Below, piece after piece: positions 22,354 to 37,017 of a stretch of 64,000 nucleotides of DNA; positions within the stretch are counted from its first letter, which is position 1, and each line of letters begins with the position of its first letter. Origin of the DNA: Sphingomonadaceae bacterium (GTDB lineage Bacteria; Chloroflexota; UBA6077); contig JBLNDL010000043.1 of the NCBI GenBank assembly GCA_050261575.1, forward strand, positions 12,115 to 76,114, given 5' to 3'. The notes beneath the pieces were generated by a model that saw only the letters and a list, made by a program, of their open reading frames with translations, was not told the origin of the DNA and made no database searches. The position numbers were made by a program, and so were the translations under genes.

Positions 22354-22797
22354 TCAGCCCTTCAGCAACCCCCTTCGGCGCCAGTCGTCGATCGATCGCT
22401 CCAGCCAGGGGTGAACGCCCTCGCCGTGCACCAGGGCGGCCAGATCGCGCGGCGCGTCCTCCGGCTCCAGCACGATCAGCCATCCCCGGTCGTATGGATC
22501 GGAGTTCAGCAGGCTGGGGCGGCTCATCACCTCCTCGTTCACCTCGACCACCCGGCCGGATATAGGCGCCTTGAGCGGCCCCACGTACTTCCCCGCCTCC
22601 ATGGTGCCGAAGGGCTTCCCCGCAGCCACCGGCCTGCCCGGAGGCTTCAGCCGGACCGCTCCCACGGTGCCGGCAGAGCGCTGCGCGAGGGCGTCCAGCC
22701 CGACCCTCGCTCTATCCCCCTCCAGACGTACCCATAGGTGGTCCTCTGGGTGGTAGTAAAGGTCATCCGGTAGCACAATGCCTTCAGCCTGAGCCAC
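22354..22797 (-). CDS. Glycine-cleavage H-protein-like lipoyl-carrier protein (GcvH family, with about 25-aa C-terminal extension)
   Basis: GTG start with AAGGAGG-N5 spacing; MAQAEGIVLPDDLYYHPEDHLWVRLEGDRARVGLDALAQRSAGTVGAVRLKPPGRPVAAGKPFGTMEAGKYVGPL...NSDPYDRGWLIVLE follows the GcvH pattern (YTKEHEWV...VGITDHAQ...ESVKAASD...NSDPYGEGW), with a candidate lipoyl-Lys in MEAGKY. Confidence 0.75.
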   Translation of the reverse strand: MAQAEGIVLPDDLYYHPEDHLWVRLEGDRARVGLDALAQRSAGTVGAVRLKPPGRPVAAGKPFGTMEAGKYVGPLKAPISGRVVEVNEEVMSRPSLLNSDPYDRGWLIVLEPEDAPRDLAALVHGEGVHPWLERSIDDWRRRGLLKG

Positions 22798-22919
22798 GAT
22801 AGCCTCCTTGGAAACCCTGAGAGATCCGTAGATATCGCAGATCGACGCAGATGGACGGCCACGAGATGCGCATCTGCGTGCTTCTGCGTGCGTCTGCGGA
22901 TCGGTTCTGTCGGGCGTCG

Positions 22920-24167
22920 TCAGTGTCCACACACCCCCGCCAACAGCTCCACGACGTCCACCACCTCGACGCCGGAGGCGCTCGCCTCCGCCCCTTGCGC
23001 GAGTGTCCGCACGCATTGGGGGCAGGCGGTCACGATGGTCCCCGCGCCGGTGCTGGCCAGTTGCGCCACCCGGCGGGCGGCCACCCTGCCCGCAAGGAGC
23101 GGGTCCACCATCTCCAGGTCGCCACCGCCGCCGCAGCACTCCCCGCGCTCCCTCCCCTCGTGGACCTCCACCAGCCGCACTCCCGGGAGGGTCTCCAGCA
23201 GCCGCCGCGGTGCGTCGTACACGCCACCGTTTCGCGCCAGGTCGCAGGGGTCGTGATAGGTCACCACCCGCTCCTCAGCCCCACCGGCCGCGGCGTGAGA
23301 GGGCGGCATCGCCCTCGACTCCGCCGACGTAGCTCTCGTCGCCGGCCCCCCGCTGGCCGAGCCATTGCGGCCATGCGGCAGCGGCAGCCGGCCCGCTTCC
23401 GCCAGCTCCAACAGGAACTCCGTGGAATGGAGCATCCGAACGCCGGGCAGTCTGGGGGCGTACTCCTCCATCCACATGATCCGGCAGGCCGGGCAGGTGA
23501 AGACCACCGTCCCCGCCTCCTTCTCCAGAAACCGAGTAACGTTGGCGTCGATCACCCTCTCGGCCCGGTCGCCCATCCCGGCCATCATCAACGGAAAGCC
23601 GCAGCACACCTCCCCCTCACCCAGCAGGGTGAAGTCCACCTGGGCAGCGGCCAGCAGCCTCACGAACGACTCCGCTATCCGCTGGACCCGCGGGGAAAAG
23701 GATGACGAGCAGCCGACGAAGTACACGACCTCGGCCCGATCCCGCTGGTAGAGGTCCGGCCGGGCGTCATCCATGTACTCTACCCACCCCGCCCTCTCCT
23801 CGTTGGGGTAGCCGTAGATGTTGCCGCTCGCGGCGACGTTGCCGCTCGCTGCAGCAATCCCCGAGGGAGCCAGATCGCGGGCAACGGTCTCTGCTCGAGC
23901 CCGCAGCCAGAACCTACGCAGGTCGATGTGAGTGGAGCAGACCCTCGTACAGTGTCCGCACATGGTGCACTGGTACAGCCGGACCATCTGGTCCGCCGAG
24001 GGGGGCCTGCCCTCGAGCAGCATCCTGGTGAGGTGGATCCTCCCCCTGGGGGAGCAGGACTCCCACCCGACGCCGGCGTAGGTGGGACAGACCGCCCGGC
24101 AGTAGCCGCAGTAGGCGCAGATGGTGGATTCGGCCTCCAACCCTTCGAAGAAGACGCGCTCACTCAT
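22920..24167 (-). CDS. Iron-sulfur oxidoreductase of the GlcF/GlpC/LutA/HdrD type (2x[4Fe-4S] ferredoxin motifs plus two CCG cysteine-rich domains)
   Basis: CAYCGYCRAVCP and CTMCGHCTRVC; CCG domain 1 VGCSSSF...CCGFP...CPAC; CCG domain 2 HDPCDL...CCGGGG...CPQC. The ATG overlaps the upstream stop (ATGA). Confidence 0.8.
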   Translation of the reverse strand: MSERVFFEGLEAESTICAYCGYCRAVCPTYAGVGWESCSPRGRIHLTRMLLEGRPPSADQMVRLYQCTMCGHCTRVCSTHIDLRRFWLRARAETVARDLAPSGIAAASGNVAASGNIYGYPNEERAGWVEYMDDARPDLYQRDRAEVVYFVGCSSSFSPRVQRIAESFVRLLAAAQVDFTLLGEGEVCCGFPLMMAGMGDRAERVIDANVTRFLEKEAGTVVFTCPACRIMWMEEYAPRLPGVRMLHSTEFLLELAEAGRLPLPHGRNGSASGGPATRATSAESRAMPPSHAAAGGAEERVVTYHDPCDLARNGGVYDAPRRLLETLPGVRLVEVHEGRERGECCGGGGDLEMVDPLLAGRVAARRVAQLASTGAGTIVTACPQCVRTLAQGAEASASGVEVVDVVELLAGVCGH

Positions 24168-25606
24168 CGCCGCCTCCCAAGGGCCACGAACACCGCCGCC
24201 AGCACCGCAGCCCCCGCATCGAACGTCACCGGCCACAGGGGGAACGGCGATCGGTACAGCTTGCCCGGGTTCATGATGCCCAGGGGGTCCAGCATCTGCT
24301 TGCGGCGCCGAAGCTCGGCCATCTGCCGCCGCGTGAACAGGCGAGACAAGTAGGGCGTGTTCCACAGCCCCACGCCGTAGGGCCGCGCGCCGTGCCGCGC
24401 CCCCAGGTTGTGCAAGCGCCTGGTGTAGCCTATCGCCGCGAGGTACTCGACGGCGTTCCGCTCGTCGGCAGGGTAGATGGACATCACCATCGCCCAGTCC
24501 GGGGCGACCGCCACCCCATAGGTGCCGATGGGCACCCGATCCCGGCGGGAGAGGGTCCGCACCGCCTCCAGGTACGCGCCCAACCCGCCCAGCGGCAGCC
24601 ACTGCTCGGCAGCCAGGAGGGAGGGTCCACCCCGCTTCGCCCGCAGGTGGAACAGGCGGGAGTTCCACTCCTCCAGCGCCGCCTCCGAGGAAAGCTCCCG
24701 TCCGCGTAGGCGTACCAGGCAGTCGTCGCCCCGCCGAACCTCCTCGGCGTCTCCCTGGAAGCTGGCCAGGAGAACGAGAGACCCGCCCGCGGGATCCACG
24801 GGGGTGTCGAAGCCAGCCTTCGCCAGCATGCCCAGGTATCCGGCATCGGCGAAGAAGAGGGTGAAGGGGCACGGCTGCCATATGGCAGCCGCGCGAAGGG
24901 CTTCGGCGAGTGCGGCGGGGCTATCGAAGGCGAGCAGATGGTGGGACTCCACCTCCGGCCTGGCCCGGACGGCCAGCTCCACCCCCGTCACCACGCCCAG
25001 CGTTCCCTCGGCGGATACGAACCAATCCAACGGTGGATCGGTGTCGCGGCTGACCGTTCGAAGTTCACCGTTGGGCAGCACCACCTCGAGGCTCACCAAC
25101 TGGTCGCCCACCGCTCCGTACTTCAGGCTGCCGATTCCGTGACCCTGGGTGCTGATCCAGCCCCCCACGGTAGCGGAGAGCGCGCTGGATGGGTAGGAGC
25201 GGACGGCGAACCCCTCGAGCCGCAGGGCGTCGTCCAGTTCGAACCAGGTGGTAGCCGGCAGCACGCGGACGATCCCCCGTGCGGGATCCAGGTCGATCCC
25301 GCCACGCATGTCGTTCACGTCCAGCACCAGTCCGCCTCGCGCGGGCACGGCGTCGTAGTAGCTGGTGCTGGCGGCTGCGCGGGGGGTCACGGCCACGTGC
25401 GACTTCGCGGCCTCGCGCACTACCTCAGCCACCTGACGGGCGCTCCGAGGGCGAACCACCGCATCGGGCAGCGTCCGAAAGAAGGGGCGAGTCAACAGGG
25501 CCGGAACAGGGGCCAGATCGCGGGAGTAGAGCGTCCGCTCGACGAGGTCGTCGGTAACGCGATCGGCCGGCAGCCCGGCCGCGATGGCTAGCTGCACTTT
25601 GCCCAC
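24164..25606 (-). CDS. FAD-linked oxidase (GlcD / D-lactate dehydrogenase family, PCMH-type FAD-binding) with hydrophobic C-terminal segment
   Basis: GTG start after GAGGAGG; the N-terminal FAD-binding domain pattern (AVTPRAAASTSYYDAVP...GGLVLDV) plus the GlcD-like C-terminal domain. Confidence 0.8.
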   Translation of the reverse strand: MGKVQLAIAAGLPADRVTDDLVERTLYSRDLAPVPALLTRPFFRTLPDAVVRPRSARQVAEVVREAAKSHVAVTPRAAASTSYYDAVPARGGLVLDVNDMRGGIDLDPARGIVRVLPATTWFELDDALRLEGFAVRSYPSSALSATVGGWISTQGHGIGSLKYGAVGDQLVSLEVVLPNGELRTVSRDTDPPLDWFVSAEGTLGVVTGVELAVRARPEVESHHLLAFDSPAALAEALRAAAIWQPCPFTLFFADAGYLGMLAKAGFDTPVDPAGGSLVLLASFQGDAEEVRRGDDCLVRLRGRELSSEAALEEWNSRLFHLRAKRGGPSLLAAEQWLPLGGLGAYLEAVRTLSRRDRVPIGTYGVAVAPDWAMVMSIYPADERNAVEYLAAIGYTRRLHNLGARHGARPYGVGLWNTPYLSRLFTRRQMAELRRRKQMLDPLGIMNPGKLYRSPFPLWPVTFDAGAAVLAAVFVALGRRR

Positions 25607-27087
25607 ACCTCCTCAGCGCGATACGAACTGCGCACCAGTGGCGAGGAGGCGACCCCCTGGAAGCCCATCGCCAGAGCCACCTCCCGGTACCAGTCGAAGA
25701 CCGCGGGATGGATGTAGTCGACCACTTCCTGCTGGCGCGGGCTCGGCTGCAGGTACTGGCCGATCGTCAGTAGGTCGCAGCCGACGCGCCGGAGGTCGCG
25801 CATCGCGTCGACCACCTCCCCGCACCTCTCCCCCAGCCCCACCATCAACCCCGACTTGGTCTTGAGGCCTCGCCTCCTGGCCCAGGCCAGCACACCCAGC
25901 GACCGTCGGTAGCTGGCTCTGGCCCGCACGGAGCCCGATAGCCGCTCCACCGTCTCCAAGTTGTGGTTGAACACGTCGGGCCGGGCATCGGCCACCGACT
26001 CCAGGGCAGACTGCGACCCGCCGAAGTCGGGCACCAGCACCTCCACGATCGCCTCGGGCAGCCTCCGGCGGATCGCCCGGATCGTTGCCGCGAAGAGCCC
26101 GGCGCCACCATCCGGAAGGTCGTCCCGTGCCACCGAGGTGACGACAACGTGGCGCAGCCCCAGCCTGGCGGCCGCCTCGGCGACCCTGGAAGGCTCCTCT
26201 GGGTCCGGAGGGCCCGGCCAGCCCGCCCTCACGTTGCAGAAGCGGCAGTGGCGCGTGCACACATCTCCCAGCACGAGGAAGGTCGCCGTGCCCCGACTCC
26301 AGCACTCCCCCAGATTCGGGCATGCCGCCTCCTCGCAGACGGTGTGAAGGCCAAGCCCCGCCACCACCGCCTCGACGGGCGCCGTCGCCTCCTGGGCAGC
26401 CATCGCCATCAGCCACGGTCCTGGGGTCCTCCGCGGCTCCACCTTTCGCCCGAAGATCCGGGCAAAGGCTCCTACGAAAGCATCCTCGACCTCCTCGATG
26501 CCGATCCTGCGCCCCAGGATCGCTCGCATGGATGTGACCCCGCGATCGGCCAGGCCGCAGGGCACTATCGTCCCGAAGGCCGCCATGTCCGGGTCGACGT
26601 TCAGGGCCACGCCGTGGGTCGTTACCCTATCCCGCACCGCGATGCCCACGGCCGCGATCTTCTCTCTGCCGACCCAAACACCCGGGTAGCGCTCGACCCG
26701 CTGGGCGACGATGCCCCACCCCTCCAGCAGATCCAGCACCACCTGCTCCAGCCGCCACAGGTAGCCGTGTAGGTCGCGGTTGGGAAGCCTCAAGATCGGG
26801 TACGCCACGAGCTGGCCGGGGGTGTGGCAGGTGGCGCGGCCGCCCCGCTCCGTCTCAACGACCTCCACGCCCAACACCCGCAGCCGGTCGCGAGGCACCC
26901 GCAGGTCCTCGATGCCGCCACCACGCCCCAGCGTGACCACGTTCGGGTGCTGCACGAGGAGCAGACAGTCCCCGACGTCGTCCCGCCGACGCGCCTCCGC
27001 CAGACGCTGCATCAACCGCAGGGCCTGGCGGTATCCGACCACCCCCATCCGAAGCAGGTATACGGGATCGTGCCGAGGCCCCATCAC
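25588..27087 (-). CDS. Bifunctional fusion: octanoyltransferase LipB (N-terminal about 215 aa) fused in-frame to lipoyl synthase LipA (C-terminal about 280 aa)
   Basis: LipB blocks (LLLVQHPNVVTLGRG, CHTPGQLVAYPIL, GVWVGREKIAAVGIAV) run without an intervening stop into LipA blocks (GLHTVCEEAACPNLGECW, CTRHCRFCNV radical-SAM CxxxCxxC). The start overlaps the lpd stop. Confidence 0.8.
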   Translation of the reverse strand: MMGPRHDPVYLLRMGVVGYRQALRLMQRLAEARRRDDVGDCLLLVQHPNVVTLGRGGGIEDLRVPRDRLRVLGVEVVETERGGRATCHTPGQLVAYPILRLPNRDLHGYLWRLEQVVLDLLEGWGIVAQRVERYPGVWVGREKIAAVGIAVRDRVTTHGVALNVDPDMAAFGTIVPCGLADRGVTSMRAILGRRIGIEEVEDAFVGAFARIFGRKVEPRRTPGPWLMAMAAQEATAPVEAVVAGLGLHTVCEEAACPNLGECWSRGTATFLVLGDVCTRHCRFCNVRAGWPGPPDPEEPSRVAEAAARLGLRHVVVTSVARDDLPDGGAGLFAATIRAIRRRLPEAIVEVLVPDFGGSQSALESVADARPDVFNHNLETVERLSGSVRARASYRRSLGVLAWARRRGLKTKSGLMVGLGERCGEVVDAMRDLRRVGCDLLTIGQYLQPSPRQQEVVDYIHPAVFDWYREVALAMGFQGVASSPLVRSSYRAEEVWAKCS

Positions 27088-28451
27088 AGCCTCGGCACGA
27101 ACAGCGCCTGCCCGAGGACAGCTCGCGCCGATTCCACGACGCTCTCGCTCAGGGTGGGATGGATCCGGAGCGACCAGGCGACATCCTCTGCAAGTGCCTC
27201 CAACTGCAGGGCCATGGCCGCCTCGGCGATCGATTCGGTCGCCCTGTGGCCGACGATGTGCACTCCCAGCAGCCTTCCACGCTTCCGATCGGCCACCAGC
27301 TTGACCCCTCCGTCCATCTCCCCAAGCCCCATGGCCCGCGGATTGGTGGATAGGGCCACGTTGGCCACCTCGACGTCGTATCCGGCATCGACGGCCTGAT
27401 CCTCGGTGAGGCCGACGGCAGCCACCTCGGGGACGGAGAAGGCGTAGCGTGGCACTATCCGTCGATCCAGCCGCCGGTCCTTCCCCATGGCGTTCTCCGC
27501 GGCCACCAGCCCCCCTGCCGTCGCCAGGGAGGAGTACATCGGATCACCGGTTGCGTCCCCCACGGCGTAGAGCCCCGGCACGTTGGTCTGCTGACGGTCG
27601 TCCACCACTACCGCGCCATCCTGGAGCCGGACTCCCGTCTCCGCCAGCCCGAGGTCCAGGGTTGCCGGCACCCTGCCGCACCACAACAGCCGGTCGGCCA
27701 CGATCTCCCTCTCGCCCCTCGGGCCCGACAGTGTTACCCTCAGGCCCTCCGAGCCACGCTGTGCCGCCCGCACCGTCGCGTTGCCGATAACCTCGATCCT
27801 CTGCCCCTGCAGAGCGGCCTGCAGCCGCTGTCCTATCTCGTAGTCCTCCTCAGGCAGTGGGTATGGCCCGTCCACCACCAGGGTCACCCGGCTACCCAGG
27901 GCGGCGTACAGGGTCGCGAACTCGACCTCCGAGGGTCCCCCGCCCCAGATGGCGAGTCGCTCGGGCACCTTCTCTAGCTGCATGGCCTCATCGGGCCGCA
28001 GCACCTCATCGACCCCCGGGGGCAACGGCGCCCACCTCGCCCCCGTGGCGAGGATCACGGCCCGGCTCGCCTGCAGCCGCCGGCCATCGACCTCCACCGT
28101 CCGGAGGTCCACCAGCCGGGCCACACCCTGCACCACCTCGATGCCGAAGGTGGGAAGAAGACCCGCCATCCCCTCCCGCAGCTCGGAGACGATCTGCTCT
28201 TTGCGGGCGATCATCTTCGGAACGTCCAGGCTCGCCGGGCCCACCCGGACACCCATCTCCTCGGCCTGTGCGACGCGCCGATACAGCTCGACGCTCGCCA
28301 GGAAGGTGGTCAGGGGAATGCAGTTCCGGTTGACGCAGTTGCCGCCCAGCTCCGCGCGCTCCACCAGGGTCACCTGTGCGCCCAGTTGCGCCGCCCTCGC
28401 CGCCGCCGCGGTCCCGCCCGGCCCTCCACCGATAACGATCACGTCTGGCAT
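27084..28451 (-). CDS. lpdA: Dihydrolipoyl dehydrogenase (E3)
   Basis: MPDVIVIGGGPGGTAAAARAAQLGAQVTLVE...GGNCVNRNCIP (redox disulfide), plus NAD and interface domains. Confidence 0.9.
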   Translation of the reverse strand: MPDVIVIGGGPGGTAAAARAAQLGAQVTLVERAELGGNCVNRNCIPLTTFLASVELYRRVAQAEEMGVRVGPASLDVPKMIARKEQIVSELREGMAGLLPTFGIEVVQGVARLVDLRTVEVDGRRLQASRAVILATGARWAPLPPGVDEVLRPDEAMQLEKVPERLAIWGGGPSEVEFATLYAALGSRVTLVVDGPYPLPEEDYEIGQRLQAALQGQRIEVIGNATVRAAQRGSEGLRVTLSGPRGEREIVADRLLWCGRVPATLDLGLAETGVRLQDGAVVVDDRQQTNVPGLYAVGDATGDPMYSSLATAGGLVAAENAMGKDRRLDRRIVPRYAFSVPEVAAVGLTEDQAVDAGYDVEVANVALSTNPRAMGLGEMDGGVKLVADRKRGRLLGVHIVGHRATESIAEAAMALQLEALAEDVAWSLRIHPTLSESVVESARAVLGQALFVPRL

Positions 28452-28488: not shown

Positions 28489-29823
28489 TCACAACAGCAG
28501 GCGGTACGGGTTCTCGATCAGTTCCTTCAGAGTCCGCATGAACTCGGCTGCAGGAGCGCCGTCCACGACGCGGTGGTCTATGGTGAGACTCAGCACCATC
28601 GTGGACCGCCTCGCGATCTCGTTCTCGTGGATCACCGGCTTCTCTGCGATGCGCCCCACACCCAGGATGGCAACCTCGGGCGAGTTGATGATCGGGGTGA
28701 AGCCGTCGACGCCGTAGGAGCCCAGGTTGGTGATAGTGAAGGTGCTTCCGGTCACCTCGTCCACCGAGAGGCTGCCGTCCCTCGCCCCCTGTGCCAAGCG
28801 TCGCGACTCCTGGGCTATCTCCCGCACCGTCCGCCGGTCGGCGTCCCGAAGGACGGGCACGATCAGCCCCTCCTCCAGCGCCACGGCGATGCCGATGTGG
28901 ATAGGCTCCAGCAGATGTATCTCGTCGCCGATAAGGACCGAGTTCAGCAGCGGATGGCTTCGAAGGGCCTTGGCGACGGCCTTCACCAGCAGGTCGTTGT
29001 AGGTCAGGTCGAACTCGGCTTTCAACTGGCTCCGCAGCCTGACCAGCTCGGTCGCGTCGACCTCCATCTGGATGGTGAGCTGGGCCATGGTGTGGAGGCT
29101 CTCCACCATGTGCTCCGCGATGGCCTGGCGCACGCCGGCGAACGGGATGGTGCGCGCCACCGACCGTGCCTCCGCCGCGCCCGGGGCTTTCTTTCGGGCT
29201 TCGGCGAAGCGCACCACGTCCTCCTCGGTGATACGGCCTCCCAAGCCGCTACCGCGAACCTCGCCCAGGTCCACACCGCGTTCGCGGGCCAACCGCCGTG
29301 CAGCGGTGGTGGCCAGCACCTCCGCGGGCACCCCCGGCCGCTCGCTCTCGGCGACGAAGCGGAGCACGTCCGCCTCCGTCACCATGCCGTCGGCGCCGGA
29401 GCCCAACACCTGCCCCAGGTCGATCCCCCTCTCCTTGGCCAATCGGCGGGCGGCCGGTGAGGCCACGACGAAGGTCGCACGAGCCTGCACCGCCTGGGCC
29501 TGCTGGGTGGCCAGCGCCGGGGCTGCGGCGACGGGCTCGACTGCCGCCGGAGCCTCGGGCACCTCTTCCACGGAGGGAACCGCCTCGCCAGGCACGGTCA
29601 CGAAGCCGAGGGTAGCCCCCACCACCCGGGTCTCTTTCGGCCGGGTCACGATCCTCAGGATGCCTGCCGACGGAGCCGTCAGGGTGTAGGTGATCTTCTT
29701 GCTCATCACCACGGCGACCGGCTCATCCTTGGCTACCTCGTCACCCTCCTGTTTGAGCCACTTGGCTACGATACCTTCCTTCATCGCCATGCCCAGCTTG
29801 GGCATGATGATCTTGGTTGCCAT
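28489..29823 (-). CDS. Dihydrolipoamide acyltransferase (E2; single lipoyl domain, PSBD, catalytic domain)
   Basis: MATKIIMPKLGMAMKEGIVAKWLKQEGDEV (lipoyl-Lys in GMAMKEG), two E3-binding-like segments, and a C-terminal DHRVVDG catalytic motif. Confidence 0.85.
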   Translation of the reverse strand: MATKIIMPKLGMAMKEGIVAKWLKQEGDEVAKDEPVAVVMSKKITYTLTAPSAGILRIVTRPKETRVVGATLGFVTVPGEAVPSVEEVPEAPAAVEPVAAAPALATQQAQAVQARATFVVASPAARRLAKERGIDLGQVLGSGADGMVTEADVLRFVAESERPGVPAEVLATTAARRLARERGVDLGEVRGSGLGGRITEEDVVRFAEARKKAPGAAEARSVARTIPFAGVRQAIAEHMVESLHTMAQLTIQMEVDATELVRLRSQLKAEFDLTYNDLLVKAVAKALRSHPLLNSVLIGDEIHLLEPIHIGIAVALEEGLIVPVLRDADRRTVREIAQESRRLAQGARDGSLSVDEVTGSTFTITNLGSYGVDGFTPIINSPEVAILGVGRIAEKPVIHENEIARRSTMVLSLTIDHRVVDGAPAAEFMRTLKELIENPYRLLL

Positions 29824-29889: not shown

Positions 29890-30894
29890 TCAGTCCTGGT
29901 CGAGACTACCGAGCCGATGGAAAACGCCCGAGCGGGCCGCCACCTCCATGCACCGGGTGAAGTCCACCACCCGGGGACCGTTCATCGTTAGCCGAACGGA
30001 GAGGGTGGGATGCCCGTAGATCTCGATCTCACGCTCGCCGTCCAGCGCCACCGTCGAAACCTGGGAGTCCAGCACCACGGACTCCCCCAACGATAGAAGC
30101 CGGTGCTCTCGGACATCGACTGGGGTCAGCAACCCTGGGGCGACCGGCGCCAGCACACGGGAGCCACCCTGCCCGAGAGCCAGATAGATCCCTTGGCCGT
30201 CCTTGCTGGTCAAGTGTCGAAAGCAGCTACCCAGCGACGAGATGCCGATGTTGCCTGGCTCCGACCTGGCCAGGACGATCTCCCGCACCCGGCTGAGGTC
30301 CCATATCGCCCTGCTGGCCACCCAGAGATCGGTACTCGTGACCGCGTCGATCAGTGCGATGTCGACCAACTCCTCGTCGAGGAACAGTTCGAGCCGCTTA
30401 GCTCGGTAGGTCACATCGTCGACCGGCACGGCGCCTGTGGCCACGAGGCCAGCGACCATCCCGGCGATCGTGCCCTCCACCATGCTCGGGAATACGTTGT
30501 TGGTGCCTGTGGAGATGGGGACGAGTGGGATCGCCCCACACCCCTTCGCCACCACCCTGTTGGTGCCGTCCCCACCGAGCACCACGATGCACCCTGCCCC
30601 CATCCGGCTCAGCAGCGCCGCGGCCTCGGAGGAGTCCCTGTCTGTGCCGCTCACCGCCATGTCCATCACCTCGGCCCGCAGGGACCGGAGGCCCAGGCCG
30701 TCCAGCGCCCGCAACCCGAGGCCATAGCTATCGGGCATGATGCTCGCTCGATCGACACCCAGCCTATCCAGGGCCAACATCACCCGCCGCAGGATGCTGA
30801 CCTTCTCGTTGTTGCCGAACACCGACGCGTGGGCCACCAGACGGCGAATATCCCTTCCGGACGCCGGGTTGGCGATGATCCCGACTGTAGACAT
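29890..30894 (-). CDS. ATP-NAD kinase / diacylglycerol-kinase-fold protein (AcoX-like) embedded in the 2-oxoacid dehydrogenase operon
   Basis: ATG at 30894 with GGGGAG RBS; GGDGT motif (VVLGGDGTNRVV) and NAD-kinase-like core. Its position between E1beta and E2 recalls acoX of acetoin dehydrogenase clusters. Confidence 0.65.
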   Translation of the reverse strand: MSTVGIIANPASGRDIRRLVAHASVFGNNEKVSILRRVMLALDRLGVDRASIMPDSYGLGLRALDGLGLRSLRAEVMDMAVSGTDRDSSEAAALLSRMGAGCIVVLGGDGTNRVVAKGCGAIPLVPISTGTNNVFPSMVEGTIAGMVAGLVATGAVPVDDVTYRAKRLELFLDEELVDIALIDAVTSTDLWVASRAIWDLSRVREIVLARSEPGNIGISSLGSCFRHLTSKDGQGIYLALGQGGSRVLAPVAPGLLTPVDVREHRLLSLGESVVLDSQVSTVALDGEREIEIYGHPTLSVRLTMNGPRVVDFTRCMEVAARSGVFHRLGSLDQD

Positions 30895-31105
30895 GAGAGG
30901 CTCTCCCCAGGGTCGGCGCTCCCGATCGATGGAACGGCCGGCCAATCTAGAAACATCGCGGAGGGCCGGCCGCACTCGCTCGCACCACGCCGCCGGCCCG
31001 CCCAGTTCCTGCCACCCGCGGCCGGGAGCGAGGGGCGTGACGCTGCGCCCGCACCACGGCCCCCCCGCCTTTCGGGGGGCGCCCCCCGCCCCACATCACA
31101 ACGGG

Positions 31106-32134
31106 TCAGCCCACCGCCGTCCTCACCGCCGCGGCGATCTTGCCGGCGCTGGGGATGTATGCATCCTCCAGCACCGGGCTGAAGGGCACCGGAGTGTGGG
31201 GTGCCGTCACCGCCACGGGTGGCGAGTCGAGGTAGCCGAAAGCCTGCTGAGCCGCCAGAGAGACGATGTCGTTGGCCACGCTGCAGCGCGGGTTGTCCTC
31301 GTCCACCACCACCAACCTGTGGGTCTTCTTCACCGACTGCAGAATGGTGTCCTCGTCCAGGGGCGAGAGGGTCTGAGGATCCACCACCTCAACCTGTATC
31401 CCGTCAGCCGCCAGCTCCTCGGCGGCCTCCATGGCAAAGCTCCGCATCCGGCCTATCGCCACCACCGTCGCGTCCTTGCCCTCCCGGGCGATCTCCGCCT
31501 GGCCCAGAGGCACGACGTAGTCGTCCTCGGGCACAGGACCCGAGCTGTCCAGCAGCACCAGGTGTTCGAAGAAGATCACCGGGTCGTCGTCGCGGATGGA
31601 TGCCGCCAGCAGCCCCTTGGCGTTGTACGGGGTGGACGGCACCACCACCTTGAGGCCCGGCATGTGGGTGAAGACCGAGTAGAGGACGGCGGAGTGCTGC
31701 GCGGCGGCTCTGAAGCCGGCGCCATACAGTGTGCGGATGACCATCGGCACCTTGGCCTTGCCGCCGAACATGTAGCGGATCTTGCCGCCCTGGTTGAAGA
31801 TCTGGTCCATGCAGACGCCGAAGAAGTCGACGAACATCAGCTCGGCTATCGGCCGCAACCCGGTGGAGGCGGCGCCCACCGCCGCACCGATGAAGGACGA
31901 CTCGCTGATGGGGGTGTCGATGACGCGGGTCCGGCCGAACTCCTGCACCAGCCCCTTGGTGACCCCCAGGTCACCGCCCCACGCCTCTTCGCCCTTCTCC
32001 TCCAGGTGGGTCCGCGCGCCGCCCGCCACATCCTCGCCCATCAGGATCACGGTGGGATCCCGGCGCATCTCCAATCGCATGGCCTCGTTGAGCGCCTCGC
32101 GGAAAGTCAGCGTTCTCGTCGTCACAGTGGTCAT
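31106..32134 (-). CDS. 2-oxoacid (acetoin/pyruvate-type) dehydrogenase E1 component beta subunit
   Basis: Transketolase-like pyrimidine-binding and C-terminal domains (VILMGEDV, FFEHLVLLD). Confidence 0.9.
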   Translation of the reverse strand: MTTVTTRTLTFREALNEAMRLEMRRDPTVILMGEDVAGGARTHLEEKGEEAWGGDLGVTKGLVQEFGRTRVIDTPISESSFIGAAVGAASTGLRPIAELMFVDFFGVCMDQIFNQGGKIRYMFGGKAKVPMVIRTLYGAGFRAAAQHSAVLYSVFTHMPGLKVVVPSTPYNAKGLLAASIRDDDPVIFFEHLVLLDSSGPVPEDDYVVPLGQAEIAREGKDATVVAIGRMRSFAMEAAEELAADGIQVEVVDPQTLSPLDEDTILQSVKKTHRLVVVDEDNPRCSVANDIVSLAAQQAFGYLDSPPVAVTAPHTPVPFSPVLEDAYIPSAGKIAAAVRTAVG

Positions 32135-32147
32135 CGCGCGTCCTCCC

Positions 32148-33116
32148 TCACCGATAGCTGACGTAGACGTCGGTCAGCACCTCTTCCGGAGCCGGATAGG
32201 GCGCCGCCTCGGCAAACTGGACGGCTTCGTCCACAGCCCTCTTCACCTCGGAGTCGATCCGAGAGATCTCGTCCTCCGAGAGGAGACCCCGCTCGAGCAC
32301 CCTCTTCCTGAAGCCGTCGATCGGGTCCCTCGCGCGGTTCTTGGCCCTCTCTTCCTCAGTGAAGTAGCTCAGGTTGTCGCCCTGGAAGTGGCCGTAGTAG
32401 CGGAACGCCTTGCACTCGATGAGCGTAGGGCCCTCACCCCGACGGGCGCGCGCAATCGCCTCGCCCGCCGCCTCGAAGACCGCGAAGAGGTCGGTGCCGT
32501 CGATAGCAAAGCCCGGCATGCTGTAGGCCGTGGCCCGGTCGGCGATGTCGTGGACAGCGGCGTGGTAGTGGGCAGGGGTGCTCTGCGCGTAGCCGTTGTT
32601 CTCGCAGACGAAGACCACCGGCAGCTTCCATATGGAGGCAAGGTTCATCGACTCGTGCATCGTGCCCTGCTCGGCCGCGCCGTCCCCGAAGAAGCAGACG
32701 GTCACCTGATCGGTACCCTTGACCTTCGCCATCAGGGCCGAGCCGCAGGCCAGCGGCCCGCCGGCCCCGACGATGCCGTTGGCACCCAGCATCCCCTTGG
32801 TCACGTCGGCGATGTGCATCGAGCCGCCCTTGCCCTTGCAGGCGCCCGGCGCCTTTCCGTACAGCTCAGCCATCATCGCCTTCAGGTCGACGCCCTTGGC
32901 TATGCAGTGCCCGTGACCGCGATGGGTGGAGGTAATGAAGTCTCGGTCGGTGAGGTGGGCGCACACCCCCACGGCGATCGCCTCCTCGCCTGCATAGAGG
33001 TGCACGAAACCCGGTATCCTACCCTCTGCAAACAAATCGGCCGCCCTGTTCTCGAACTCGCGTATCAGCCGCATCCGTTCGTAGATCCAGGGCAGTCTCT
33101 CCTTGAGTTCAGTCAT
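32148..33116 (-). CDS. 2-oxoacid (acetoin/pyruvate-type) dehydrogenase E1 component alpha subunit (TPP-binding)
   Basis: TPP motif GDGAAEQG...NN (CFFGDGAAEQGTMHESMNLASIWKLPVVFVCENNGYA); the roughly 320-aa size and FRYYGHFQGD are typical of AcoA-like E1alpha. Confidence 0.9.
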   Translation of the reverse strand: MTELKERLPWIYERMRLIREFENRAADLFAEGRIPGFVHLYAGEEAIAVGVCAHLTDRDFITSTHRGHGHCIAKGVDLKAMMAELYGKAPGACKGKGGSMHIADVTKGMLGANGIVGAGGPLACGSALMAKVKGTDQVTVCFFGDGAAEQGTMHESMNLASIWKLPVVFVCENNGYAQSTPAHYHAAVHDIADRATAYSMPGFAIDGTDLFAVFEAAGEAIARARRGEGPTLIECKAFRYYGHFQGDNLSYFTEEERAKNRARDPIDGFRKRVLERGLLSEDEISRIDSEVKRAVDEAVQFAEAAPYPAPEEVLTDVYVSYR

Positions 33117-33426: not shown

Positions 33427-34518
33427 TCATCCGGGATCGTCGCCGCGGTGCCCCTCCGACAATGCCAGCAGGACGGCTGCGATCTCCTCCGGCGTCACCC
33501 CCGGCGACTGGAGGTCCAACTCCCCGTACACCCCCTGCAGGCGAGGTAGCAGCGCTTCGGGCCGCAGTTCAAGCCCCCGAACCGCCTCCTCCAGTGCGTC
33601 GAGTCCGGCAGCAGGCGACATGGTGAAGTCGCCGGAGATGGTCAGATCGTCGATACGCCCATCGCGGACGGACGCCGTGACTCGGATCAACCCGCCCGGC
33701 GCCTTGCGCTCAGCCTCAACCACCTGCACGCCCTCGTGTATCTTCACCCCATCGCGCTTGAGGCCGCCCCGCAGATACAACCATCGGCGCGACGACAGCC
33801 GCTCGTCCCACCGGCGAGCCGCCGCCTCCTCGCGCTCCGTCAGAGCACCGGGCACGATCTCTCGACCTAGGAGGGCGGACAGCTTGTCGAGGTAGAGGCC
33901 CTTCACGGCTTCACGATCGGGAAGCCGCCCTAGCTCCCGGGACATCGTGGTCACGTACTCTCGGAGGCTCCGGTACACCTTATCCCGCATCTTCTCGGAT
34001 GGCAGCCTCAGGACACGCACCATCGCCTCGTGGTCGAAGTCGAACATCAGGCTGCCGACCACCACCTCTGCCTCCCCCATGCGTGCAGCACCCGTCCCCC
34101 CGATCTTCCTGCCATCCACGTGCACGTCGTTGATCGGCCGGTGGTAGGCAGCTATGCCGAGGGCCCTGTAGGTGTCCACCAGCGCCTGCACGTGGAGGGC
34201 GAAGCGGCCCTCCACCGACGATGGGAGATGCTCCCGATGGAAGACCCACTGGGTGAAGAGCTGGTCGCGGTCCAGGTAGACGGCGCCGCCGCCCACCTCC
34301 CGTCGATAGACCGGAAGGCCGTGGGCCCGGCAGAAGGCCATATCCACTTCCTTCTCCAGGTCCTGGTGGAAGCCAATGCACACGTAGGGGTCGATGGGGG
34401 ATACGAGAACGAGGGAGTCTGGGGTCTCGGGGAGCATGGCATGAGCCAGGGCGTGGTAGATCGACTGCGACCGCACCGGCGGGACAAATCCAAGGTCCAG
34501 GAGACGAATGGCATCCAT
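33427..34518 (-). CDS. lplA: Lipoate-protein ligase A (BPL/LPL catalytic domain plus C-terminal domain)
   Basis: ATG with GGAGG 5 nt upstream; VLVSPIDPYVCIGFHQDL...RREVGGGAVYLD...KIGGTGAARMGE (lipoyl-AMP binding Lys region). Confidence 0.85.
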   Translation of the reverse strand: MDAIRLLDLGFVPPVRSQSIYHALAHAMLPETPDSLVLVSPIDPYVCIGFHQDLEKEVDMAFCRAHGLPVYRREVGGGAVYLDRDQLFTQWVFHREHLPSSVEGRFALHVQALVDTYRALGIAAYHRPINDVHVDGRKIGGTGAARMGEAEVVVGSLMFDFDHEAMVRVLRLPSEKMRDKVYRSLREYVTTMSRELGRLPDREAVKGLYLDKLSALLGREIVPGALTEREEAAARRWDERLSSRRWLYLRGGLKRDGVKIHEGVQVVEAERKAPGGLIRVTASVRDGRIDDLTISGDFTMSPAAGLDALEEAVRGLELRPEALLPRLQGVYGELDLQSPGVTPEEIAAVLLALSEGHRGDDPG

Positions 34519-35288: not shown

Positions 35289-36857
35289 TCACGGACGGCG
35301 AGACAGGAGGATCCGGGCGGCCCCACCGAGGGACGGATGCTCTCGGGGCTTCAGCACCACCTGCTGAGGGTTGGGCTCCTCGACCTCCGCGCCGAGCGCA
35401 TCGAAGACCCGCTTTCCGGCCGGCAGGGGCACCGTGACATCCCTGCCGGCCACTTTCGACCAGACGACGGTGAACTCGACGCCGTCGCTTCGAGTCCCGT
35501 CCACCCTCATGGTCTCTTCGCTCTCCGACCACGAAACACTGGAGATCCTCGCCAGCAGTCTCGCCATGGTGGTGAGCGCCAGGTAGGAGGGCTTCTTCAC
35601 CAGACGTCCGTTCTCGATCCTCGTCAAGGAGAACCTGTCTTCGCCGCCGTCCAGGGCTGAGTAGAAGTACAGCCGGTCCATCATGCCGGAGGCGACGGCG
35701 AGGGATGTGATCTGCGGGATGTACCCCTCCGCGAGCTGTCCATCGGTGGCCGGCGTCTGCCCCGAATTGACAGTGGGGTTACCCACTTCTGCCAGGTCGA
35801 ACTTGAGGTCGTTGAGCCCCACCTTCGCCATGGTCTCGCGCATCCGGGTCAGCCTCTGCAGGAACCCGTCTATCGGGCCGTAGTAGTGGTCCGCCACCCT
35901 CTGGAAGGGGAGGAACTTCGAGGAGCCGTTCGCCCACCCCGGTAGGAGCGAGTCGAAGGTACCGAGCAGCTTCTGCAGATACTCGCCCTCCCCGAAGTAG
36001 GCCATTCCCGGCAGCGCGAGTTCCAGATCGTCGAGGCCCTCTCGCTTCTTGACATCGGCGGCGGTCGAGAGGGTCTTCACCAGTTCTGGGAGGTTGTCCC
36101 GCCACGCCGCGCCCGGATCGTTCGGCTCGTTGCCCCAGACGATAGTCCGAACGCCGTACCCGTGCAGCGCACGGATGATCCTGGCCACCTTCTCTGGGCT
36201 CAAGGGTCTGTCGAGTTCCACCACCGCCGTGGCATGGCGGCCGTTGGACATCGCCCAGACGGCACGGTCGAAAACGCGCCGCTGCACGTTCTCCAGGTAG
36301 TCGGTGCCCCGGAACCCCCCGACGAGCGGGCCGTTGCCGAACAGCAGGAACCGTTGTCTTCCATCGTCGACGAACACCATGTGGGGCGAGATGGCAAACC
36401 GGAAGTGTCCGATGTCTAGCTCTTCCTCTTCCTCCATCAGCGGCCAATTGTTCAACCCGAGCCTGGACTCGGTCAGGGGGGTATCGCCGAGGAGCTGTTG
36501 GAGGGGGCTGGGCGCGTGTCCCCCGCGCCTCTCCTCTGCCTCTCTTCGCGCCATACAACTCGCCACAGCCTCGCTCGGCGACCGCGCCGCGATATCGAAC
36601 GACAGCGGGTTCCCCCTGGCGACGCAGGCCTCGATCATATCCCGCTCCGACTGCGAAGCCCCTTCGAGGGTATCGGGCAACTGGGTTATGACCGTCGGCA
36701 GGGTAGGCGGAAGGGGGGGTTGCGCCCAGGGTCGAGCGAACGCGGCACTAGGGTTCGCAACCACACCGACGGCAAGCGCCGACAGGCTGCCAAGCAACCG
36801 GCGGCGGCTGACGACACCGTTCCAGGATCGAATCGCAGTCTCCAACATCTCCACCAT
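35289..36857 (-). CDS. Tat-secreted glycoside hydrolase (clan GH-A-like, NEP motif)
   Basis: ATG at 36857 with GGAGGAGG; twin-arginine signal (SRRRLLGSLSALAVGVVANPSAAFA); VRTIVWGNEPN catalytic-acid motif. Confidence 0.7.
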   Translation of the reverse strand: MVEMLETAIRSWNGVVSRRRLLGSLSALAVGVVANPSAAFARPWAQPPLPPTLPTVITQLPDTLEGASQSERDMIEACVARGNPLSFDIAARSPSEAVASCMARREAEERRGGHAPSPLQQLLGDTPLTESRLGLNNWPLMEEEEELDIGHFRFAISPHMVFVDDGRQRFLLFGNGPLVGGFRGTDYLENVQRRVFDRAVWAMSNGRHATAVVELDRPLSPEKVARIIRALHGYGVRTIVWGNEPNDPGAAWRDNLPELVKTLSTAADVKKREGLDDLELALPGMAYFGEGEYLQKLLGTFDSLLPGWANGSSKFLPFQRVADHYYGPIDGFLQRLTRMRETMAKVGLNDLKFDLAEVGNPTVNSGQTPATDGQLAEGYIPQITSLAVASGMMDRLYFYSALDGGEDRFSLTRIENGRLVKKPSYLALTTMARLLARISSVSWSESEETMRVDGTRSDGVEFTVVWSKVAGRDVTVPLPAGKRVFDALGAEVEEPNPQQVVLKPREHPSLGGAARILLSRRP

Positions 36858-37017
36858 TTCCTCCTCCGTCGCCCGCACTTGGCCCGCCAAGGCCATCCGG
36901 CGCCATCGCCGGACCGGACGGCGCGTGCCATCTCCACACCCGGCGAGATCGGGTTCACCCGCCGTCGTGTGGGGACATGATAATGCAGAGAGCACACCTG
37001 CCCAACCCTCGACACTC

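Follow-up and report, generated by a model that had tools for sequence, protein, structure and literature searches.

A GcvH-like carrier and a CCG iron-sulfur protein as the conserved core of a putative lipoyl-carrier-dependent oxidoreductase in Chloroflexota

Introduction

The question addressed here is what a lipoyl-carrier protein of the GcvH family does beside an iron-sulfur protein of the heterodisulfide reductase (Hdr) type and a flavoprotein, at the end of an operon for lipoylation and 2-oxoacid oxidation. The operon lies in a 64,000-nucleotide stretch of contig JBLNDL010000043.1 (assembly GCA_050261575.1), hereafter the window, and its last three genes (22354-25606, minus strand) encode a flavoprotein of the GlcD fold, an HdrD/GlcF-like protein with two CCG domains (the CCG protein) and a GcvH-like protein. 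An original prediction, made from the sequence, treated this trio as one unit, compared it with the Hdr-like complexes of sulfur oxidizers and proposed an Lpd-independent route between a dedicated lipoyl carrier and a D-lactate/glycolate-type dehydrogenase or quinone.

The evidence presented below points to the trio as one functional unit, because its gene adjacency is conserved across phyla and contexts, the module is portable, a Rosetta-stone fusion exists, and the carrier belongs to a dedicated clade that is accompanied by maturation genes. As to the activity of this unit, we regard the chances as evenly balanced that the CCG and GcvH-like proteins are the obligate core of an undescribed lipoyl-carrier-dependent oxidoreductase, to which the flavoprotein is added as an optional electron-transfer subunit. 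In the literature on combinations of GcvH, CCG, LbpA, acetoin and TusA, and on sHdr/LbpA, lipoate assembly and EtfD, we found no description of the trio.

Results

Conservation of the CCG-GcvH pair in Chloroflexota

Genomes were scanned with an alignment of CCG proteins, and the loci recovered were searched by tblastn with all proteins of the operon. The GcvH-like gene lay directly beside the CCG gene, on its 3' side, in every Chloroflexota-type locus with enough flanking sequence (L001-L015 and L017-L024), and the pair was linked to E1a-E1b-AcoX-E2-E3. Among distant CCG homologues from outside Chloroflexota (27%–36% identity), an adjacent GcvH match was present in 1 of 61 (L026), and another of these loci (L038) carried a GcvH-E3 pair 4.6 kb away. 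The CCG-GcvH linkage is far beyond chance, and the view of the trio as a conserved functional unit rather than a group of chance neighbors is borne out by adjacency in all assessable Chloroflexota loci.

Three layouts were distinguished. Type A loci resemble the window (E3-LipB::LipA-[SDR]-GlcD-CCG-GcvH, where SDR is a short-chain dehydrogenase), type B loci read E3-LipB-CCG-GcvH without flavoprotein and without LipA, and type C loci read CCG-GcvH-E1a-E1b-ZnADH-SDR-Lin0512-AcoX-E2-E3. Because loci of types B and C keep the CCG and GcvH-like genes without the flavoprotein, the pair is the invariant core and the flavoprotein is optional. The unit originally proposed thus stands for its core, while its flavoprotein proves dispensable.

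The gene for dihydrolipoyl dehydrogenase (E3) accompanies the module at three loci that lack E1 and E2 (L005, L136, and L149). Therefore, it is more likely that E3 belongs to the system, which makes the Lpd-independent route doubtful; Lpd-linked would be the better term.

Further genomic contexts and a fusion protein

More distant flavoprotein orthologues (45%–54% identity) sit in two further recurrent contexts. In one of them (L086, L087, and L089), the genes run E2-E1a-E1b-TRAP transporter-SDR-AhpD-domain protein-LipB-LipA-GcvH-GlcD-CCG-LplA-GcvH-Lpl(AB)-LipS2-LipS1, so that the module has a complete set of lipoate-assembly genes on either side, LipB-LipA of the canonical pathway on one and Lpl/LipS2/LipS1 of the alternative pathway on the other (for example, L089:7611-17468), and each set adjoins its own GcvH paralogue. 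The other context (L090:1216-15191, L092:3515-14246, and L091:493-4595) begins with LysR-SelD-(persulfide-dioxygenase-like::rhodanese)-MFS-OsmC-DsrE-DsrE-DsrE-TusA-DsrE2 and continues with Grx-DUF302-small open reading frame (ORF)-GlcD-CCG-GcvH-OsmC; the small ORF has 76 aa, SelD is bona fide (361 bits), and the second OsmC gene is followed by SHOCT and then a PIG-L deacetylase. The GcvH protein of this context is 54%–57% identical to that of the window, and no E1, E2, or E3 is present there. As a side observation, this cluster is a possible island for selenium/sulfur trafficking or thiol stress, with the same module at its disposal. These trios also revise the suggestion that the module is coupled to E1/E2/E3 instead of sulfur systems, as orthologous trios occur in DsrE/TusA/SelD/OsmC clusters as well.

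A metagenome scan seeded with the CCG proteins of these two contexts yielded 46 assessable loci, in 17 of which the CCG gene was directly beside a GcvH-like gene. Variants included GcvH-CCG-LplA-LipS1-LipS2, E3-GcvH-CCG, CCG-TusA-GcvH-DsrE-LplA (L099), and DsrE2-CCG-GcvH. Lipoylation genes were present at 13/17 GcvH-linked versus 6/29 GcvH-less loci. Sister loci with an equally similar CCG protein (43%–45% identity) lack GcvH and mostly lack lipoylation genes, and the flavoprotein of these GcvH-less loci retained intact HAGDGNLH and GEHGIG motifs in 10 of 14 cases. A second GlcD/GlcE-like paralogue, often together with TRAP transporters, was also observed in sister loci (L096, L097, L101, L105, L133, and others). 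The GcvH-less sister loci probably encode genuine 2-hydroxyacid dehydrogenases and serve here as a natural control. The trio itself did not turn up as a standalone oxidase, since the sister loci carry a different, catalytically intact GlcD.

A profile search over 1.8 billion representatives recovered a fusion protein of 1391 aa (P0385) from two independent assemblies, with the architecture [GcvH-like x3]-[GlcD-like, 47% identity]-[CCG, 39% identity]. Genes for a PAS/GAF histidine kinase, a response regulator, and a UbiA prenyltransferase border its own (L093:3234-7409, also L094).

The GcvH-like carrier

The GcvH-like gene (22354..22797, minus strand) encodes 147 aa with a Pfam GCV_H match (E 4.9e-31), begins with GTG 5 nt after AAGGAGG, and its product equals a public protein (P0001) at 100% identity and coverage. 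The coordinates and domain calls first given for the trio were right, and its products match public proteins. The predicted lipoyl-lysine is K70 within MEAGKYVG, which aligns with the lipoyl-lysine of the H-proteins of Mycobacterium tuberculosis, pea, and Thermus (3hgb, 1dxm, and 1onl). The protein nevertheless falls under both NCBIfam GcvH cut-offs (NF002270, 111.6 vs 117; TIGR00527, 84.7 vs 115.85), is 37%–46% identical to canonical H-proteins, and reads EAGKYVG and SAGTVGAVRLKP in place of the canonical ES[VT]K[AST] and LGD[VI]VFVELP motifs.

Its homologues form a tight clade of 147-aa proteins found almost exclusively in uncultured Chloroflexota. Across contexts, the GcvH-like proteins of CCG loci are 45%–73% identical to one another versus 30%–46% to canonical H-proteins. 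The C-terminal extension that had been noted is real; it runs ~20 residues past canonical GcvH, ends in RGLLK, and is conserved across the clade, of which it is a signature together with E[SAT]GK[YW]xG. The lysine is kept in all stand-alone CCG-linked members. The window protein has zero cysteines, and none are visible in the alignment of the clade from the aco (acetoin) and sulfur/selenium contexts. No GCV_T or GDC-P family was found in the Pfam-annotated flanks of 15 related loci, and all neighbors of the gene in the window operon are assigned to functions other than glycine cleavage. The assignment of the protein as a dedicated, non-canonical carrier with a retained lipoyl-lysine is supported by these sequence features.

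The CCG iron-sulfur protein

The CCG gene (22920..24167, minus strand) encodes 415 aa with two Pfam CCG matches (E 3.1e-31) and Fer4_8, and its product is identical to a public protein (P0123, 100% identity and coverage). Two ferredoxin-type CxxCxxCxxxC motifs (8 cysteines) are followed by two complete five-cysteine CCG modules (C153, C188, C189, C225, and C228; C308, C344, C345, C382, and C385), and 18/18 cluster cysteines are invariant across 13 sequences, namely the window protein and 12 relatives. The best NCBIfam match is the thiol:fumarate reductase subunit TfrB (E 1.7e-42; 145.7 vs cut-off 385), and the GlcF equivalog score is likewise far from its cut-off (NF008434, 91.7 vs 333).

The nearest solved sequence relative is mycobacterial EtfD (9ojn, E 1.5e-30), whose cluster is a linear [3Fe-4S] and whose site is closed and non-catalytic owing to a Cys-to-Thr substitution and an extra His ligand (PMC13083937). 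The window protein and its 12 relatives keep the CC pair in both modules and have Ala or Ser at the position of the EtfD His (Ala227 in the window), so that the arrangement of the cluster site is, as far as sequence can tell, Hdr-like and unlike that of EtfD. The protein has no N-terminal membrane domain, and no gene for an HdrE-like membrane cytochrome b or for HdrA, HdrB, or HdrC was found in the window operon or related loci. A low-complexity insert of ~32 residues (HGRNGSASGGPATRATSAESRAMPPSHAAAGGAEE; window 23279-23384, residues ~262-297) lies between the CCG domains and is absent from all aligned homologues.

The GlcD-fold flavoprotein

The flavoprotein gene (24164..25606, minus strand) encodes 480 aa of the VAO/PCMH fold with Pfam matches to FAD_binding_4 (E 2.5e-34) and FAD-oxidase_C. 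A public protein (P0241) matches it at 100% identity over 99%, and the NCBI start is the second GTG, which gives 477 aa. The AlphaFold model (pLDDT 86.7) was closest in Foldseek to D-lactate dehydrogenases (mLDHD, 9qit) and to the alkyl-DHAP synthase ADPS, with TM ~0.78, and the GlcD equivalog was missed by a wide margin (TIGR00387, 108 vs cut-off 567.9).

In mouse LDHD, the Mn2+-binding residues His398, His405, and Glu442, as well as Arg347 and the catalytic His443, are each essential (PMC10589216). Aligned with D-lactate dehydrogenase 9qgz, the flavoprotein has VAVAPDWAM for HAGDGNLH and RPYGVG for GEHGVG, and 4/5 of the residues essential in LDHD are substituted family-wide in trio-type flavoproteins. 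These always read [RHCSA]PYG[VI]G[LV]WN; among 47 family members, P409 never varies, and conservation reaches at least 90% at V367 and Y410. Because the Mn ligands and the catalytic His are lost here and kept in the GcvH-less sisters, hydroxyacid oxidation is not the expected task of the flavoprotein. On its motifs, the protein is not a classical D-2-hydroxyacid (lactate/glycolate) dehydrogenase, and the D-lactate/glycolate-type activity first suggested for it must be abandoned.

A conserved hydrophobic helix is present at the C-terminus (residues 459-478). A transmembrane anchor is unlikely, as the same segment is internal in the fusion P0385, between two cytoplasmic cofactor domains, and an amphipathic, interface, or peripheral helix is the more likely prediction. 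Another candidate role, that of a servant of LipA, was considered on account of co-variation in Chloroflexota and is weakened by the trios of the sulfur/selenium context, which keep the flavoprotein with no lipoyl synthase nearby.

The host operon and its surroundings

The trio closes a ten-gene array of 12.2 kb, all on the minus strand, in the order Lpl(AB), E1a, E1b, AcoX-like, E2, E3, LipB::LipA, GlcD-fold, CCG, and GcvH-like. The first gene (33427..34518) encodes an Lpl(AB)-type lipoate-protein ligase of 363 aa (Pfam LplA-B_cat, E 1.6e-36, and Lip_prot_lig_C). E1 alpha (32148-33116) and E1 beta (31106-32134) are of the thiamine pyrophosphate-dependent pyruvate dehydrogenase/acetoin dehydrogenase type, an assignment that draws on TIGR03182 (372 bits) and synteny with relatives for the E1 genes (31106..33116). 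The AcoX-like protein of NAD-kinase fold (29890..30975; Pfam NAD_kinase, E 6.3e-8) has the same position in relatives. The E2 dihydrolipoyl acyltransferase (28489..29823, 444 aa; NCBIfam E2 families, E ~1e-88) is built of a single lipoyl domain, two tandem E3-binding (PSBD) repeats, and the catalytic domain. E3 is AcoL-like (27084..28451, 455 aa), scores 394 bits against the cut-off of 408.8 in TIGR01350, and contains the CVNRNC redox disulfide and an HPTLSE motif. The LipB::LipA fusion (25588..27087, 499 aa) unites octanoyltransferase and lipoyl synthase, with Pfam matches to LplA-B_cat and Radical_SAM and with NCBIfam scores that exceed the cut-offs for lipoyl synthase (384 bits) and LipB (179 bits).

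E1 alpha and beta, E2, E3, and AcoX, the genes that define an aco-type operon, are thus all present in the window operon, and relatives carry genes for a Zn-alcohol dehydrogenase, an SDR, and Lin0512 between E1b and AcoX (L024) or for an SDR (L003 and L004). Because of the alcohol and short-chain dehydrogenases and AcoX, the host operon can be assigned to the acetoin/2,3-butanediol (aco) type, its substrate specificity being a prediction.

The ATGA coupling proposed for the trio was found at the GlcD/CCG junction, which is the sole such overlap among the trio junctions; the LipA and GlcD genes overlap by 19 nt (10 nt with the NCBI start), and the CCG and GcvH-like genes are separated by a spacer of 122 nt (22798..22919, minus strand) with a Shine-Dalgarno AAGGAGG at 22803-22809. 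The E3 and LipB::LipA genes overlap by 4 nt (GTGA), and gaps of 310 nt and 130 nt occur between the Lpl(AB) gene and E1a and between E1b and AcoX, respectively. Because of the 122-, 310-, and 130-nt gaps, one transcript across the whole array is only plausible from the layout. Neither a riboswitch or other Rfam family nor a tRNA emerged when the whole window was scanned, and a scan of the operon for promoters and terminators gave matches at chance level only. The CCG-GcvH spacer contains repeated CGCAGA motifs and a predicted long hairpin (-49.3 kcal/mol, z -1.78) that is not significant; spacers in homologous loci are mostly shorter, about 2–35 nt (L001-L005, L088, and L090-L092), and longer in, for example, L011 and L012.

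Beyond the GcvH-like gene, DUF1786 and then GTP-dependent phosphoenolpyruvate carboxykinase converge from the plus strand, and because DUF1786 converges from the opposite strand, the GcvH-like gene is the last of the array. The carboxykinase (18767-20878, plus strand) has an N-terminal extension of ~100 residues. Farther away, a signaling block (12721-17469, plus strand) encodes two anti-sigma-type kinases (HATPase_c_2), a SpoIIE-type phosphatase, a histidine kinase, and a response regulator-GAF-PAS-HD_5 protein, and just upstream of the operon lies the gene for a 568-aa protein with no Pfam match (35289-36995, minus strand). The source metagenome-assembled genome is labeled 'Sphingomonadaceae bacterium' by NCBI. 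Because every close homologue and synteny match belongs to Chloroflexota (Anaerolineae/Chloroflexales), the contig is probably mis-binned under this label; some type A relatives are likewise labeled Syntrophales or delta-proteobacterium.

Discussion

Gene content, motifs, conserved synteny, and the fusion protein are established for this module, and from them we propose a scheme in which the catalytic steps are all inferred. The motifs give a cofactor set of a lipoyl arm, two Hdr-type CCG clusters, two [4Fe-4S] clusters, and FAD, which can be regarded by analogy as a minimal form of the sHdr-LbpA set with HdrD standing for HdrB and HdrC. K70 of the GcvH-like protein would be lipoylated by the LipB::LipA and/or Lpl(AB) of the operon. 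The lipoyl arm might then dock at the two CCG clusters, where dithiolane and dithiol would be interconverted in analogy to HdrB/HdrD, DsrK-DsrC, and sHdr-LbpA. The cofactor motifs suggest that the two [4Fe-4S] clusters would relay electrons, in one direction or the other, between the CCG site and the FAD of the flavoprotein, beyond which a further acceptor or donor would stand. The recurrent linkage with E3 suggests that this enzyme may tie the pool of lipoyl-GcvH to NAD(H) and to the lipoyl domains of the E2 of the acetoin/2-oxoacid dehydrogenase.

Because of thermodynamics and the precedent of TfrAB, we prefer the direction in which dihydrolipoyl-GcvH would be oxidized toward a more positive acceptor, and the module would thereby give the reducing equivalents of the dehydrogenase complex an extra outlet. 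In the reverse direction, it could supply dihydrolipoyl-GcvH to lipoyl-dependent peroxidases or sulfur/selenium relay proteins. OsmC and AhpD-like proteins belong to families reduced by lipoyl proteins (PMC5384416), and such OsmC and AhpD-domain neighbors, together with the relay proteins, suggest that the reduced carrier may be the useful product in other contexts. Somewhat short of an even chance, we also entertain a broader picture, in which a modular lipoyl-protein:Fe-S/flavin oxidoreductase would join the 2-oxoacid and acetoin dehydrogenases, glycine cleavage, and sHdr as a further lipoate-dependent system. Composed of the dedicated carrier, the HdrD-like CCG protein, and, optionally, the remodelled flavoprotein, it would let electrons into or out of the lipoyl pool alongside NAD(H)/E3 and would be plugged into acetoin/2-oxoacid dehydrogenases, lipoyl-dependent peroxidases, and sulfur/selenium relays.

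The proposal of a lipoyl-carrier-dependent oxidoreductase is favored by the CCG protein, which keeps all 10 Hdr-type cysteines without the Thr and His substitutions of EtfD, and by the portability of the module among at least three contexts (aco/butanediol operons, lipoate-assembly superclusters, and SelD-DsrE-TusA-OsmC clusters). Dedicated lipoylation genes accompany sHdr-LbpA too (PMC6067878). Several points weigh against it. All source sequences are metagenome-assembled genomes or metagenomes. The typical substrates of the VAO family are too oxidizing to reduce lipoamide, so that one direction is thermodynamically awkward. The CCG clusters of GlcF/GlpC/LutA/EtfD-type proteins serve electron transfer and not disulfide reduction, and no cluster-surrounding residue was found that separates GcvH-linked from classical-GlcD-linked CCG proteins; a rough neighbor-joining tree nests the classical group among the GcvH-linked clades without a clean separation. 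Because of this nesting and the lack of discriminating residues, the 10-Cys site is not a signature of lipoyl chemistry. The fusion P0385 has Arg at the position of the lipoyl-Lys in 3/3 GcvH-like domains, and at least that variant works without lipoate on those domains; no CCG-GcvH fusion with an intact lysine was found, only the Lys-less triple-domain P0385. In the loci without flavoprotein, no electron partner was recognized. In type B loci, the GcvH-like gene is followed by one for a 420-aa protein (L020:11715-12977) with weak matches to multiheme cytochromes c (Cytochrome_C554/C7, E ~1e-4); this protein might be a candidate for the electron partner in loci that lack the flavoprotein. Finally, the constant neighborhood of lipoate-synthesis genes fits a role in lipoate assembly equally well.

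Under this alternative, which we consider unlikely, octanoate would be turned into lipoate while bound to the GcvH-like protein as its scaffold or relay, and the CCG protein, with the flavoprotein where present, would feed electrons to LipA or LipS1/S2 or rebuild their sacrificial cluster. The module nearly always adjoins LipB, LipA, LplA, or LipS1/S2, lipoylation genes are concentrated at the GcvH-linked metagenome loci (13/17 vs 6/29), and the flavoprotein of Chloroflexota co-varies with the LipA fusion, type A having both and type B neither. Orders such as GcvH-CCG-LplA-LipS1-LipS2 also resemble lipS1-lpl(AB)-lipS2-lipT, where the FAD protein LipT has a proposed role in electron supply for lipoyl synthase and is present in only ~53% of bacteria with LipS1/S2 (PMC10332631). 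However, trios of the SelD/DsrE/TusA context keep the flavoprotein with no lipoyl synthase within 10 kb, and in type C loci CCG-GcvH precedes E1a while neither LipB nor LipA is nearby. The GcvH paralogues of the two lipoate-assembly sets appear to be end clients like LbpA1/2 rather than intermediates, because each has its own maturation set. LipB normally requires no relay, and a protein of four Fe-S clusters with Hdr-type CCG sites would be an unusual reductase for a radical-SAM enzyme, with its own electron source still to explain.

It is also conceivable, though quite improbable, that the dihydrolipoyl arm bears a covalent intermediate, either sulfane sulfur or selenium or the acyl or hydroxyethyl group of E1, which the CCG protein would process. 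LbpA is a proposed carrier of a bound intermediate in the sHdr system (PMC6067878), DsrE/TusA/rhodanese/SelD neighbors recur (L090, L092, L099, L102, and L150), and the module is near E1 in aco operons. Contrarily, sulfur-relay genes are missing from the window operon, the two cysteines of LbpA have no counterpart in the GcvH-like protein, and no HdrA-like or other catalytic subunit for sulfur oxidation is present; the occurrence of one GcvH-like/CCG clade across contexts of very different chemistry favors a generic redox role. Ordinary enzymes that merely share an operon are a very improbable explanation. GlcD and GlcF would then be a D-lactate/glycolate dehydrogenase that feeds a 2-oxoacid to E1/E2/E3, and GcvH a normal H-protein or a relay of the Bacillus type. 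Fold and Pfam domains do correspond to GlcD and GlcF, homologues bear the JGI annotations glycolate oxidase and HdrD, and close CCG relatives do pair with canonical GlcD/GlcE and TRAP transporters. Yet the whole family lacks the Mn-binding His-His-Glu and the catalytic His, the scores of all three proteins fall far short of the curated equivalog cut-offs, many loci keep CCG and GcvH without the flavoprotein, and the trio occurs without any E1/E2. No gcvT or gcvP was found in any Pfam-annotated flank, and the GcvH clade has its own signature.

Among known systems, the trio lacks defining features of canonical GcvH, LbpA, GlcD, GlcF, HdrDE, and EtfD, and by analogy it would work most like sHdr-LbpA; the comparison drawn by the original prediction was apt. 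The system of sulfur oxidizers consists of sHdrC1B1AHC2B2 and LbpA with sLpl(AB), LipS1/S2, and LipT (PMC6067878, PMC10332631). Both systems combine, in firm genetic linkage, a GcvH-like protein of a single lipoyl domain and a CCG-cluster Fe-S enzyme with FAD, and both have dedicated lipoylation genes adjacent (LipB::LipA and Lpl(AB) in the window; LplA with LipS1/LipS2 in relatives). TusA/DsrE neighbors in one context and E3 as the proposed link to NAD+ are further likenesses. The trio differs in that it has one HdrD-like polypeptide and not HdrB/HdrC pairs, and a VAO/GlcD-fold flavoprotein and not HdrA; the window uses the canonical LipB::LipA and not LipS1/S2, and the trio is found mainly in the setting of a Chloroflexota operon for acetoin/2-oxoacid dehydrogenase and not in that of sulfur oxidation. 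LbpA has a strictly conserved cysteine close to each of its two termini (PMC6067878), whereas the carrier of the trio lacks both and is not encoded beside shdrC1B1AHC2B2.

The arrangement of two [4Fe-4S] clusters and two five-Cys CCG modules is shared with HdrDE, DsrMK(JOP)-DsrC, and TfrAB, of which DsrK already acts on a disulfide carried by a protein (DsrC) and TfrAB is a precedent for the flow from dithiol through CCG and Fe-S clusters to FAD. Unlike these, the trio has no membrane cytochrome b partner and no fumarate-reductase flavoprotein, and its substrate would be a lipoyl-lysine arm. With GlcDEF, Dld-II, and LutABC it shares the domain pair and its order, flavoprotein then CCG, coupled by ATGA, and the closest CCG sister group (43%–45% identity) pairs with canonical GlcD/GlcE. 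In contrast to GlcDEF, however, the flavoprotein lacks the His-His-Glu/His site and is dispensable, GlcE is absent, and GcvH is an obligate neighbor. EtfD (PDB 9ojn) has the same Fer4-CCG-CCG core and accepts electrons from a flavoprotein, but it possesses five transmembrane helices, heme b, and a linear [3Fe-4S] cluster (PMC13083937), whereas the CCG protein of the window is predicted to be soluble. The LipM-GcvH-LipL relay of Bacillus subtilis likewise ties a GcvH protein to lipoate-assembly enzymes, although it uses a canonical H-protein with LipM and LipL; the trio has LipB and Lpl(AB), and its carrier is a separate clade tied to the CCG protein.

A lipoyl redox relay runs in M. tuberculosis from Lpd through DlaT and AhpD to AhpC. 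As in that relay and those from L-protein and H-protein to OsmC or Ohr, a lipoyl protein would act in the trio as a diffusible dithiol reductant with E3 as the point of entry for NADH, and OsmC or AhpD-domain genes flank the trio in both contexts outside the Chloroflexota-type operons. Those relays need no CCG protein or flavoprotein, and the window operon has no peroxidase gene. The L-protein/H-protein relays to OsmC or Ohr peroxidases have been described (PMC5384416).

Conclusions

On genomic grounds the case for the module is strong, and its mechanism is a proposal. Only a handful of lipoate-dependent systems are known, to which sHdr-LbpA was in 2018 the first addition in decades (PMC6067878), and the trio would add a member. 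The CCG-GcvH pairing, structurally simpler than sHdr-LbpA, occurs widely among uncultured Chloroflexota and in other lineages rich in anaerobes. If the proposal is true, many proteins mis-annotated as 'glycolate oxidase', 'heterodisulfide reductase subunit D', or 'glycine cleavage H' would gain a function, and a small three-protein model would be at hand for the way in which non-cubane CCG clusters handle a protein-bound dithiolane. It would also show how some bacteria re-route the reducing equivalents of 2-oxoacid and acetoin dehydrogenases, and the meeting of a lipoyl arm with an Hdr-type cluster would be a general design and not a peculiarity of sulfur oxidizers.

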